NCBI GenBank assembly: GCA_963733455.1
Contig: CAVTDE010000006.1
Span: forward strand, 218,373 to 282,372
From: an uncultured Bacteroidales bacterium
Lineage (GTDB): Bacteria > Bacteroidota > Bacteroidia > Bacteroidales > VadinHA17
Direction of reading: 5' to 3'
DNA: 64,000 nucleotides
Part shown: positions 11,496-14,561 of the stretch, piece after piece
Position numbering within the stretch: the first letter of the stretch is position 1
Layout of the letters: each line of letters opens with the position of its first letter
Translations under genes and position numbers: made by a program
The notes under the pieces: model-generated
Database searches by the model: none
What the model was told of the DNA's origin: nothing
Seen by the model: the letters and a program-made list of their open reading frames with translations, nothing else

Positions 11496-11999
11496 GTATT
11501 TCTTTTTTGAATACTTCTGTGATCAATTGATATACAGGCACATTAATTAAATATGTAATTACAGACCCGGATAGCTTGTCATTTCGGTACTATGTTCAAT
11601 TACACTTTAGTCTGATCAGGATCCTAATTCCCCGGATGGTAGATCCTCGGATATTACTGTTGTCCCTTCAGCATCACTTTTAGTGGAAAAAACATTAGGT
11701 GCCACCCTGAAATAATTCCCCACCTGCCCCAGTTGAAAATAAAATTATATAAAGTCCTGAAGGGACTTAAAAAAAATGCCACTAAAGTGGCATAATTTGA
11801 ATAACCTCCGGCGCAAGCCGGAGGTTTGTGCCACACATTGATCCTAAAACCCTGAAGGGCATACGCGTCAACTTAAGGAGTAGAATAGGATATGAATTAA
11901 GTTGTATACAGCTGATATGCAATTATTTACATTTCTCCTCCACCACTTTCCTCCCCCTGCAAGCTGGCCCCTTCGCTAAAATTGCTAAAGGGAGATTAT

Positions 12000-12359
12000 A
12001 TGAGAATTCATCAATACTTTGTATATATTTTGACCAACAGGGCCAATAAGGTTCTTTATACAGGTGTCACCAACGATCTTGAGGGACGATGCAATGAGCA
12101 TAAGAGCAAGCTTATAAAAGGCTTTACTATGAGATACAATGTTAACAGACTGGTTTATTTTGAAATATTCGATCAGGTTGAATCAGCAATTGCACGAGAA
12201 AAGCAAATAAAAGGAATGCTCAGGATAAAGAAGGTAAGTCTTATCGAAGAGTTTAACAGGGAATGGGAAGATCTTTGTAGGGATGGGAAGGTGGGGTATC
12301 CTTCAATAATGAAGAAGAATTCCTGCTCGCATGAAGGGGATCCTTCGCTTCGCTACTAA
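12000..12359 (+). CDS. Small stand-alone GIY-YIG nuclease (UPF0213-like)
   Basis: YFVYIL...LYTGVTNDL..R..EH...GFT.RYNV.RLVYFE...AIAREKQIK. The ATG at 12000 is preferred to the TTG at 11982. Confidence 0.88.
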   Translation: MRIHQYFVYILTNRANKVLYTGVTNDLEGRCNEHKSKLIKGFTMRYNVNRLVYFEIFDQVESAIAREKQIKGMLRIKKVSLIEEFNREWEDLCRDGKVGYPSIMKKNSCSHEGDPSLRY

Positions 12360-12375
12360 TGACAACATTTGTAAC

Positions 12376-13674
12376 TCATACATTATAAACAACTTGTACA
12401 TTTAGTTCTTTTGCTAGTCTGTTAAGGGATCGCTGTTTTTGTATCAGGAGTTGTTCCTCATACTTTTTAGTTCCTTCTTCTACGAAGGCCATCCCTTTTA
12501 CCATTACTCTCCAGTAAAGTACTGCAAGTTTGCGAGCAATTGATTTTATCGCAACTGGTGACCCTTTTCTAACGCTGAGTCTGCGTCCAAATGCTCCAAG
12601 TGCTATACGTTTGCTTGTTAACAGACTTTGAGCTATCTGTCTGAAGATTTGGCCTGCCTTGGGGCGTCCTGATTTTCTTCTGTTTCTATTAGTTCTGCCC
12701 GAGTTATGCTGACCCGGTGCAAGACCCAACCAGCTGGTATAATGTTTTTCTGTTGGCCATCTGGATAAATCACCACCTGTTTCTGAGAGTAGTTGCATCC
12801 AGCTGTAATCTGTTATACCCGAGACTGTGGTGGCATCCCTTCCGTTAAAGATTTTCAGCATCATTGAGCCAAGATTATCAATATCAGGTTTATTATGACG
12901 TATTGGTTTTCTGCGAACATCTGTTTTTTGATCTGGTTTACCTCTACTGATCTTTTGAAGAACCTCATCGATCATCTGGTCACACTGCTCGATCTGATTC
13001 TGATAAAAGCAATATGATTCAAAGGCTTGCCTTAGTGCAAATAATCCTTGTTTTGTATACCTGCCATTTAGAGCTTTTAATACCTCATCTTTCTTGTTTT
13101 TAATAATTTTTGTGTGGCAGAGTTTTAATAGTTTTTCCTTATCTCTTTCGCCTTTCAGGATAGCTTCTATCATAGCCAGCCCACTCACTCCATGGATCTG
13201 ATCCAATACTTCCGTAAGCCTGATATTCATTTCAGTGAGGGCTTTTTGCATATGGTTAATATGCATTGATGCCGACCGGATATGGTCTTCTCTCAGCCGC
13301 TGATATGACCTGAGTTCCTTTATATCGCTTTCTGCAACAAAACACCTGTTTAATAGTCCATAGCTATGTAACTGCTGTATCCATTGACAGTCTTTAACAT
13401 CAGTTTTTCGGCCAGGTACTTGTTTTGTTTGACGACCATCAACAAGCCAAACGTCTATTCCGGCCTCTTCCAGCATTTCATACAAAATACCCCAATAGAC
13501 TCCAGTGGCTTCCATTGCTGCAGTCTTAATATCGTTCTCAAAAAGATAATCACGTAGTTTTTCAAAGTCTTCAGTAAAGGTGTAAAAACTTTTTACCTCC
13601 TGTCCTTCGATTGCAACAAATACCTTCTTGGATCCAATGTCTATTCCAGCACAATCTTTTCTAATTTTTTCCAT
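12376..13674 (-). CDS. IS110-family DEDD recombinase/transposase
   Basis: GIDIG, MEATGVYW and RKTDVKD (RuvC-like DEDD); WLGLAP..HNSG (Tnp domain with catalytic Ser); AIKSIARKLAV. Confidence 0.95.
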   Translation of the reverse strand: MEKIRKDCAGIDIGSKKVFVAIEGQEVKSFYTFTEDFEKLRDYLFENDIKTAAMEATGVYWGILYEMLEEAGIDVWLVDGRQTKQVPGRKTDVKDCQWIQQLHSYGLLNRCFVAESDIKELRSYQRLREDHIRSASMHINHMQKALTEMNIRLTEVLDQIHGVSGLAMIEAILKGERDKEKLLKLCHTKIIKNKKDEVLKALNGRYTKQGLFALRQAFESYCFYQNQIEQCDQMIDEVLQKISRGKPDQKTDVRRKPIRHNKPDIDNLGSMMLKIFNGRDATTVSGITDYSWMQLLSETGGDLSRWPTEKHYTSWLGLAPGQHNSGRTNRNRRKSGRPKAGQIFRQIAQSLLTSKRIALGAFGRRLSVRKGSPVAIKSIARKLAVLYWRVMVKGMAFVEEGTKKYEEQLLIQKQRSLNRLAKELNVQVVYNV

Positions 13675-13699
13675 ACTTGTAATACATTAAATTATACAA

Positions 13700-13895
13700 A
13701 AGATTACACCCGGAAGGTCTTTGGAAATTGCAATGCTACTAATCGGACATTCCTTTTAGGAAGTACCATACCTGAAGACTTTATCTTCCGGAACCATACT
13801 CAGGAGCAGGCAAAATGCACTATTCAAGCGAAGGTCATGCTTGTGTAACCCGTACAAAATTAATTGATTCTGGTTGTCATAATACCAGAAGTACA
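13700..13895 (-). ncRNA. Putative IS110 bridge RNA (5' hairpin, target-binding loop, donor-binding loop)
   Basis: Guide-like segments match the target (AGCGAAG at 13827-13833, CTCAGGA at 13799-13805) and the donor (CTACTAAT at 13736-13743). Stems: TTCTGGT/ACCAGAA, TTACAC/GTGTAA, CCGGAAG/CTTCCGG, GTCTT/AAGAC, TTCCT/AGGAA. Boundaries are approximate. Confidence 0.8.
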
Positions 13896-14051
13896 AAACT
13901 TTGGATAAAAACTCAGGATGACAAGCGGAGTTGAGTCTGGTTTAGGGGGGAAAAGCAGCGAGCCGCCATCCGGCATTCTTCATAGTTTATTGATTAGCTA
14001 AATGGCGGCTCACTGCTTCTCCCCCCTCTTCCAATATATTCGCTAATGACC

Positions 14052-14079
14052 TGTCATCCTGAGCGAAGCGAAGGATCCC
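14052..14079. repeat. Intact REP TGTCATCCTGAGCGAAGCGAAGGATCCC, inverted partner of the IS110-interrupted copy
   Basis: 28/28 match to the reconstructed empty site (12337-12354 plus 13914-13923). A GC-rich hairpin at about 13946-14027 lies between the pair. Confidence 0.88.
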
Positions 14080-14561
14080 TTTATCAATTAAACAAGATGT
14101 TATGAAAGATTAGCTTCAAAAGGGGACCGAGCGTAAAAAAATTGCCCGGTGGGCAATTTTAGCGAAGGGGCCAGCCTGCAGGGGAAGGGGAAGCATGTGG
14201 TGGAGGGGAAACTTATTTAATTGAATTTCTGCTAATTAGATAATTATAAGTATAAATCTGATCCTTAAGTTGACGCGTATGCCTGAAGGGGCTTAATAAA
14301 GTTGATTATTTGTTAATCAGCTTTTGCAACTTAGGTTTGTTTCACAGCCGGAACATCATAAGAAATCGACTTTTAAAGAGGGGGTACAGGAGTTTGAAAA
14401 TGATGTAGGGATTAAAACTAACGATAAGTACTTTCCTTAGATTTCAGATTCAGCTCCTTCAGAGCTGATGTGTGTAATATACGTATACCTCCGGTTGCAC
14501 CGGAGGTTATTCAAATATAGCTCTTTCAGAGCCGGGTTTCTAAGCAAATTTTGGAGAAACC

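Follow-up and report, generated by a model that had tools for sequence, protein, structure and literature searches.

A Bacteroidota IS110-family insertion sequence whose left end is predicted to encode a bridge RNA of mixed layout

Bridge (or seek) RNAs, a kind of RNA first described in 2024, are to our knowledge the only natural guides that specify both partners of a DNA recombination, and they are under development for large-scale genome rewriting. Two described systems serve here for comparison. One is IS621 of Escherichia coli, a member of the IS110 group that consists of a bridge RNA and a recombinase (Durrant et al. 2024, PMC11208160; Hiraizumi et al. 2024, PMC11208158); the other is the set of IS1111-family elements with a seekRNA, ISEc11, ISPa11, ISKpn4 and ISPst6 (Siddiquee et al. 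2024, PMC11187229). Both are taken as set out in the passages of those papers that are cited below. The locus of interest lies in a stretch of 64,000 nucleotides (nt) of an uncultured Bacteroidales bacterium (GenBank assembly GCA_963733455.1, contig CAVTDE010000006.1, positions 218,373 to 282,372), called the window, and is a complete IS110-family insertion sequence of 1,559 bp (window 12353-13911, minus strand). An interpretation made earlier from the letters of the window (the sequence-only reading) had placed there a bridge RNA with a target loop followed by a donor loop, as in IS110 bridge RNAs. We put the probability at about 0.87 that this is an intact IS110-family element with a bridge (seek) RNA of ~150 nt encoded in its left non-coding end (LE, 237 nt) and bearing two guides, each on the 3′ side of its loop. 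Comparison with relatives supports the fold, the two 3′-side guides, the element ends and the conservation of the catalytic residues.

Relatives were collected by scanning one genome per species, which gave 322 pattern matches, 101 of them encoding a relative. Keeping the best 80 of the 101 yielded 78 loci (protein identity 54-93%), nearly all from isolates or metagenome-assembled genomes (MAGs) of Bacteroidota. Sixty of these loci and the window were parsed into 61 rows, for which at least 270 nt of upstream sequence and a protein match starting at residue 1 were required; exact duplicates of the upstream stretch were left out, as was one locus that failed to align (L067). Alignment A1, used for the RNA, holds 48 distinct left ends. 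Features below are on the minus strand unless stated otherwise, and LE position p is window position 13912-p.

The element is present in eight copies in the host genome, at 99-100% identity. These near-identical copies, an intact empty site and RE-LE joints in relatives (right end to left end, described next) speak for its mobility, and the empty site also helps to fix the junctions. Its LE (13675-13911) lies upstream of the recombinase gene, and its right end (RE, 12353-12375) is the 23-nt GTTACAAATGTTGTCATTAGTAG, which holds one arm of a subterminal repeat, GTTGTCAT, and the donor half-site ...TAGTAG. At the left junction the flank GTCATCCTGAG is followed by TTTTTATCC, and at the right junction GTCATTAGTAG is followed by CGAAGCG. 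Head-to-tail tandem copies in two relatives (L017 and L019) expose the RE-LE joint, in which ...ATTAGCAG runs directly into TTTTTATCC, and the left flank aligns in nearly all relatives as GTCA-N4-NAG up to the junction; the element is therefore 1,559 bp long, with a 237-nt LE and a 23-nt RE, and the tandem joints bear out the ends that the sequence-only reading had assumed. Two unoccupied sites that read GTCATTAGTAG followed by CGAAG had prompted another placement, with the crossover inside TTGTCAT, a 7-bp string common to the flank and the RE. This was ruled out by the same joints and the family-wide alignment, which put the ends after ...TAG and before TTTTTATCC.

The half-site abutting the LE, GTCATCCTGAG (13912-13922), follows a family flank consensus of GTCA-N4-(G/C/T)AG, with AG as its final dinucleotide in 60 of 61 rows. 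The final dinucleotide at the right junction is AG in 33 of 50 rows, AA in 12 and AC in 5. The core is AG on the coding strand of the window copy and CT on the other, and on that opposite strand reads (C/T/G)T in the family. These right-junction counts fit the core rule of IS621, in which the second T is nearly invariant and the first C looser (PMC11208158); a (C/T/G)T core on one strand and insertion into a repeated host sequence are both shared with that system.

The recombinase gene (12376-13674, 432 amino acids) was assigned DEDD RuvC-like and Tnp domains with Pfam, NCBIfam and a family profile. The Pfam matches are PF01548 (E-value 5.9e-21, residues 9-149) and PF02371 (E-value 4.1e-11), and the protein passes NCBIfam model NF033542, 'IS110 family RNA-guided transposase', with 220 bits against a cut-off of 140, in agreement with the family named in the sequence-only reading. 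A search of the PDB with the single sequence gave nothing at E-values up to 0.01, so that a profile of 18 family members was needed to reach IS621 (8wt6, E-value 3e-6) and ISCro4 (9t56, E-value 7.8e-5). The protein is thus distant from that of IS621, which it reaches only by profile, and has 432 residues against 328 in the solved IS621 chain. D12, E55, D92, D95 and S325 are invariant in the alignment of 18 relatives' proteins, from which one gene with an internal stop was left out. The four acidic residues align with the GID, EATG and KTDxxD stretches of IS621, which hold its catalytic D11, E60 and D102/D105, and S325, in GQHNSG, aligns with the serine of its ESG stretch, S241 in the numbering of the paper (PMC11208158). 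Both features of the IS110 family are present, the PF01548 DEDD domain and a C-terminal PF02371 Tnp domain with the catalytic serine, and in this combination of DEDD and Tnp(Ser) parts the recombinase is like that of IS621. A plasmid search in protein mode returned only generic 'IS110 family transposase' names, at no more than 45% identity, and gave no placement between IS110 and IS1111.

Covariation among the relatives indicates that the LE encodes an RNA with a three-way junction, an outer stem enclosing a target arm and a donor arm. The core of this predicted RNA spans 13704-13848. Its outer stem, UUACAC/GUGUAA (13843-13848 with 13704-13709), changes on both sides in five of six pairs and is paired in 83% of cells across the 48 LEs. 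The target-binding arm (13792-13836) has a closing stem GACC/GGUU (13833-13836 with 13792-13795; 99.5% paired, three of four pairs changing on both sides), an internal loop and a hairpin UAG(U)GC...GCCUG (13807-13822; 99.6% paired). The donor-binding arm (13710-13791) has a closing stem CCGGAAG/CUUCCGG (13785-13791 with 13710-13716), in which all seven pairs change on both sides, a helix GUCUU/AAGAC, the weakest at 72% paired, and a hairpin UGG(U)ACUUCC...GGAAUGUCCG (13744-13768; 99.1% paired, six of nine pairs changing on both sides). In both arms the internal loop is thus topped by a conserved hairpin containing a bulged U.

RNAalifold run on A1 predicted the two closing stems and the two capping hairpins, and independently recovered five of the counted helices, the outer stem not among them; the outer stem and the GUCUU/AAGAC helix, the latter from the sequence-only reading, were added by hand before pairs were counted. 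Over 36 pairs and 48 sequences, standard pairs fill 91.3% of cells against 79.7% in shuffled alignments, 26 of the 36 pairs show change on both sides against 19.9, and double-change cells number 241 against 74; on all five covariation measures none of 500 shuffles scored as high. When the 3′ partners are slid by 1 to 3 columns, pairing falls to 31-50%. The multi-way junction drawn in the sequence-only reading, target loop then donor loop inside an outer stem, is borne out over the 48 LEs with one closure corrected. Its CAUG/UAUG closure has no pair that changes on both sides and is paired in 80.7% of cells against 80.3% when shuffled (210 of 500 shuffles as high); the closure kept in the family is GACC/GGUU. 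The strings it had named all occur at the minus-strand places it gave them (CTTCGCT 13827-13833, TCCTGAG 13799-13805, CCGGAAG/CTTCCGG, GTCTT/AAGAC and TTACAC/GTGTAA), and its internal UUCCU/AGGAA hairpin is found as a TTCC/GGAA hairpin inside 13744-13768.

A structured RNA with two internal loops, in the non-coding end beside the gene, is what IS621 has, and the covariation over the 48 LEs finds the same here; as in IS621, the RNA lies in the left non-coding end upstream of the gene and the target loop precedes the donor loop. The enclosure of the two arms by an outer stem, making a three-way junction, is unlike IS621. Such departures have company, as many covariance models of bridge RNAs differ from the IS621 fold and yet covary with target and donor (PMC11208160; Evo-PIN/COMPASS preprint, 10.64898/2026.10.21.760802).

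The 8 nt directly 3′ of each capping hairpin are, on the evidence of their changes among relatives, the segments that act as guides: in both arms these 8 nt vary and the hairpins do not. The hairpin-then-guide layout is the same in the two arms. The target guide, CUCCUGAG (DNA CTCCTGAG, 13799-13806), is identical to the flank GTCATCCTGAG that abuts the LE. Across 42 distinct pairs its identity to its own flank is 0.783, against 0.553 when permuted (z = 12.5, none of 1,000 permutations as high), and mutual information forms a diagonal joining LE 108-111 with flank positions -6 to -3. Guide and flank agree at seven of seven positions in 34 of the 61 rows and at six or more in 53; the eight rows below six are L024, with a 1-nt parsing shift, and L027, L029, L036, L038, L047, L071 and L079. 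Natural reprogramming is visible where flank and guide change jointly, as to CCTGAG, TTCTGAG, TTCCGAG, TTGCGAG and CTCAGAG. The donor guide, AUUAGUAG (DNA ATTAGTAG, 13736-13743), repeats the final 8 nt of the RE exactly, with an identity across 25 pairs of 0.845 against 0.674 (z = 8.5, none of 1,000 permutations), a test in which the RE end had been chosen as the best match to the guide. When the RE end was chosen by the subterminal repeat alone, 4.85 of 6 positions matched against 3.84 (26 pairs, none of 5,000 permutations), with three mis-parsed rows (L024, L047 and L090) kept in.

Chance occurrence was gauged with 20,000 dinucleotide shuffles of the left end and strings anchored at the junctions: TCCTGAG turned up in 227, ATTAGTAG in 106, CTTCGCT in 79 and any two jointly in 3. 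A laxer test, requiring a match of at least 7 nt on either strand to all three 14-nt sites, was passed by 18 of 5,000 shuffles. The two matches that the sequence-only reading had proposed on these sides, UCCUGAG for the target and AUUAGUAG for the donor, track the LE-side flank and the RE, respectively, across relatives, the conserved target guide being the slightly longer CTCCTGAG.

The placement of the guides sets the element between its two comparators. The guides include the core dinucleotide, as in IS621. Those identical to the LE-side flank and to the RE end lie on the 3′ sides of their loops and not on the 5′ sides as in IS621, so that the element is 'antisense' to the CT core, and only 3′-side guides are detectable in the Bacteroidota family. 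In IS1111 seekRNAs the complement of the top strand lies 5′ of the match to the bottom strand (PMC11187229). The same order is found here, where CCUUCGCUU, the complement of the right flank on the sense strand, precedes CUCCUGAG, identical to the left flank on that strand. The order of the loops given in the sequence-only reading stands, but the layout is not that of IS621: the order of the guides is reversed, as in IS1111-type seekRNAs.

The way such an element would work can be sketched by analogy with IS621 and IS1111-type elements, from which we infer transcription from an internal promoter, binding of the RNA by the protein and strand exchange. CUCCUGAG in the first arm would base-pair with the opposite strand of GTCATCCTGAG, which is the half of the target that comes to lie beside the LE, and AUUAGUAG in the second arm would pair likewise with the right terminus of the element, ...GTCATTAGTAG. 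The DEDD/Ser recombinase, loaded with the RNA, would then bring the joined ends (RE-LE) together with the target, and strands would be exchanged at the common AG, that is CT on the other strand.

The termini carry a subterminal inverted repeat. TGAC is invariant in the 48 LEs, starting at LE 22-39 (median 34), and is the inverted repeat of a GTCA in the RE that stands 7 nt from the right end; the whole repeat is 6-9 bp long and ~31-36 nt from the left end. In the window copy the left arm ATGACAAC (LE 32-39; 13873-13880) pairs with GTTGTCAT (12359-12366). Bases beyond TGAC covary with the RE (2.89 against 2.01 of 6 in 37 pairs, none of 5,000 permutations), examples being ATGACAAC/GTTGTCAT, ATGACAG/CTGTCAT and TGACGTA/TACGTCA. 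Such a repeat at this place is unlike IS621. Covarying subterminal inverted repeats and orientation-specific insertion into a conserved repeat are both as in IS1111, whose repeats are usually 11-13 bp with extensions of 7 bp on the left and 3 bp on the right (PMC11187229); the geometry is unlike, with 6-9 bp and extensions of ~31-36 nt and 7 nt.

Just 5′ of the left arm lies CUUCUGGUA (LE 21-29; 13883-13891), a co-varying direct repeat of CUUCAGGUA (LE 135-143; 13769-13777), the 5′ strand of the donor arm (5.49 against 3.85 matches of 11 in 41 pairs, none of 2,000 permutations). This repeat may be the site where the left side of the donor is read, or a competing RNA pairing. The 5′ hairpin of the sequence-only reading (13868-13890) is present, as TTCTGG/CCAGAA, with six pairs where seven had been given. 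Because it carries the subterminal inverted repeat and lies upstream of the candidate promoter box, it probably belongs to the DNA and lies outside the RNA.

That box, TAATTTTG (13855-13862), has the family consensus TAnnTTTG, stands 6 nt upstream of the outer stem and is conserved in A1; the stretch is wholly deleted in L022, L025 and L089. It resembles what we take to be the -7 box of Bacteroidota promoters. A run of U follows the outer stem. The RNA would thus be ~150 nt long (roughly 13700-13850), started from an internal promoter, with the 5′ hairpin outside it. A promoter and terminator scan of 13640-13960, of a kind not suited to Bacteroidota promoters and applied to the unjoined form only, found no sigma-70-type promoter and no terminator. 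IS621 rebuilds a promoter across the RE-LE joint; here no sigma-70 promoter spans the junction in that same scan, and the internal TAnnTTTG is found instead. One contig of a relative from a metatranscriptome run (X2), ending at window 13911, continues past the LE start into RE-like sequence, and so represents an RE-LE joint in an RNA library, whether of a circular form or of tandem copies; only this one contig shows it, and it may derive from DNA.

With the RNA upstream of the recombinase gene (237 nt of LE against an RE of only 23 nt), the element departs from IS1111, where the RNA is downstream with rare exceptions such as ISMtsp17 (PMC11187229). We read the Bacteroidota RNA as a new layout variant of the known bridge/seek RNA system, judging by sequence comparison; this rating was given because one feature of IS621 (guide order) and two of IS1111 (RNA position and repeat geometry) were not found. 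A search of the literature on IS110 bridge RNAs, Bacteroidota included, found no description of this family or layout in the text consulted; figures and supplements were outside that scope, and the family may already be among the survey clusters.

The target used in the host genome, CGCTTCG-CT-CAGGATGAC, belongs to a repeated GIY-YIG gene unit and lies at its 3′ end. The insertion point falls within the final codons of an open reading frame (ORF) with a GIY-YIG domain (11982-12359, plus strand; E-value 1.2e-17), and the target half abutting its RE, CGAAGCGAAGG (12342-12352), is on the plus strand the 3′ end of that gene. The unit is ~0.7 kb long (window about 11850-12352 plus 13912-14116) and occurs 11 times in the genome; each has the GIY-YIG ORF, the target at its stop codon (site A), a long hairpin and a second, inverted target copy (site B). 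Site B, at 14048-14077 on the plus strand of the window, is identical to site A over 28 bases, TGTCATCCTGAGCGAAGCGAAGGATCCC. The eight copies have identical flanks that extend ~205 nt from one end and 350-500 nt from the other. Scanning for GTCA-N7 with CGAAGCGAAGG directly after it gave 25 sites: eight right junctions of the element, one intact empty site in the same context, two empty sites with TAGTAG in place of CCTGAG, 11 inverted second targets in the same units (all unoccupied), one GTCATCCTGAG in another context, and two with CCAGAG.

Two of the three unoccupied units (G000:C5:109140-109241 and G000:C6:342886-342987; L009/L013 and L010/L014) read GTCATTAGTAG followed by CGAAG, the last six bases of the element replacing CCTGAG. 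This could be the footprint of a deletion between the 7-bp TTGTCAT repeats, or a natural variant. The closest relatives (L015-L019) target exactly a site of this kind. Two of these relatives form the tandem copies (L017:1261-4293 and L019:1266-4296), and there the target guide is nearly the same as the donor guide (CUUAGCAG/AUUAGCAG), so that insertion recreates the target at the right junction, where tandem copies are found. The flanking unit of the window also holds a near-perfect 82-nt hairpin (13945-14026). Rfam gave the hairpin region (13939-14045) only sub-threshold matches to plant and animal microRNAs, the best at 37.6 bits against a gathering threshold of 117, and a microRNA identity was rejected in favour of a structural look-alike. 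Beyond the unit (window about 14120-14300, and the flanks of L002-L008) are mosaics of short GC-rich repeats, for example CCCCTGCAGGCTGGCCCCTTCGC..., and hairpins with T-runs; these repeats are common to several loci in differing combinations.

Several results weigh against an RNA with two guides that direct insertion. The sequence-only reading had named folding energy and covariation as checks, and the former is unremarkable: the single-sequence minimum free energy of the left end is -50.2 kcal/mol (z = -1.06), a value equalled or bettered by 29 of 200 shuffles. The latter finds both fold and 3′-side guides covarying, and support for the fold thus comes from the relatives and not from energy. 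An Rfam scan of 12000-14400 at E-values up to 1 matched no family in the left end. Two metatranscriptome runs (0.08 and 0.05 of sampled words) yielded only short contigs from relatives; these cover 13764-13923 and parts of the gene, may derive from DNA and do not show strand or ends. Eight of the 11 units carry the element at site A and none carries it at site B, which means either that insertion depends on more than the guide matches or that the copies were spread along with the larger unit.

The remaining difficulties concern the 5′-side strands, which may take part in DNA recognition. In the window copy the 5′ strand of the target loop, the candidate guide CCUUCGCUU (13826-13834), is an exact 9-mer complement of the right flank that ends 2 nt off the core, and the CUUCGCU proposed in the sequence-only reading (13827-13833) is a 7-mer match that includes the core; both registers are possible because the flank repeats CTTCG CTTCG CT. 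Exact as it is in this copy, that guide has no fixed register in the relatives: the best fixed-register z is 3.0 (46 pairs), and a position matrix (42 pairs) shows no diagonal, its largest single cell reaching z = 4.0. Gapped local alignment gives a modest signal (own flank 8.67 against 7.73 for others, 19 of 5,000 permutations as high). The 5′ strand of the donor loop has no relation to the left terminus on either strand among relatives, and in a gapped test the own terminus scores 8.09 against 8.28 for others (43 pairs, 3,845 of 5,000 permutations as high), which justifies the doubt already voiced over a left donor guide. Positions equivalent to the IS621 handshake, the nt after each 3′ guide, are weak as well (126 and 261 of 5,000 permutations as high). 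Finally, one Cyclobacteriaceae MAG holds the same element at six sites (L058-L061, L063 and L073) with a constant LE-side flank, (C/T)GTCA(C/T)TCAGAG, and four unrelated RE-side flanks. To us these look like natural 'half-match' insertions, in the sense of the off-target concept of Xie et al. (2026 preprint, 10.64898/2026.08.31.748434). Recognition of the RE-side half of the target looks loose, and recognition as a whole appears one-sided.

These strands leave some room for a standard IS621-type system with four guides, whose 5′-side guides are real but were missed through bulges, variable register or misjudged flanks. The exact 7-9-nt match to the right flank in the window copy and the flexible alignment favouring the own flank (19 of 5,000) speak for it, as do the discontinuity of donor pairing in IS621 itself (PMC11208160) and the match of GAUAAA to the left terminus in the window copy (score 12). 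We think it unlikely, since the guide order is reversed relative to IS621, the 43 pairs hold no signal of a 5′ donor guide, and the 5′ strand of the donor arm appears largely base-paired (the 72% helix) and co-varies with a segment inside the LE rather than with the terminus. About as improbable, in our estimate, is a bolder variant in which the Bacteroidota clade forms a lineage of its own, placed between the IS110 and IS1111 types, with a different way of recognising DNA. Each loop would then have one true guide, on its 3′ strand, reading the GTCA-N4-AG half-site shared by target and donor; the left side of the donor would be read ~20-30 nt inside the terminus beside the subterminal repeat, where the DNA segment co-evolves with the stem of the donor arm, and guide-equal variants would rebuild the target and so give tandem arrays. 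Internal reading of the donor, if true, would agree with the inverted repeat holding the donor DNA in a folded or single-stranded state.

Far less credible is a left end that is a mere 5′ leader or promoter of the recombinase mRNA, with 'guides' that are protein-bound DNA repeats of the termini. Both validated segments are identical to DNA of the same strand and can equally be described as direct repeats, a further co-varying direct repeat links LE 21-29 with LE 135-143, and the metatranscriptome contigs come only from relatives and do not show transcription. The helices around the segments, however, keep pairing through compensatory change (the 241 double-change cells against 74 expected), which argues for a structured RNA; one of the two segments follows the host DNA beyond the element, as a terminal protein-binding repeat would not, the hairpin-then-guide layout recurs in both arms, and the protein belongs to a family that NCBI names RNA-guided. 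A different doubt concerns only the number of insertions: a single insertion into the ~0.7-kb GIY-YIG unit, with most of the eight copies arising as the unit multiplied, would be compatible with an RNA-guided element. GIY-YIG nuclease genes can be mobile, the flanking ORF encodes such a domain, all eight copies have identical flanks, and the filling of site A but never of the equally matched site B would be natural if the copies travelled as passengers. IS110/IS1111 elements home into repeated sequences, though (PMC11208160), so that both histories predict identical flanks; in other genomes, relatives occupy the same half-site amid unrelated surroundings, and filling site B beside a filled site A would create a large inverted repeat that may be selected against. 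We hold this history of the copies possible but doubtful.

Taken as an RNA-guided element with two 3′-side guides, the locus extends existing knowledge of a mechanism that is already known, and in that sense is no surprise. It is a compact natural example from Bacteroidota, with about 60 relatives (from the best 80 of 101) in which guide and target have visibly changed together, so that the programmable positions are directly legible, those for the target at 13799-13806 and those for the donor at 13736-13743. One-sided recognition and the unoccupied perfect sites are relevant to the 'half-match' off-target question raised by Xie et al. (2026 preprint). The mixed layout, with an upstream RNA as in IS110 and the guide order and subterminal repeat of IS1111, bears on the relationship between the IS110 and IS1111 groups.

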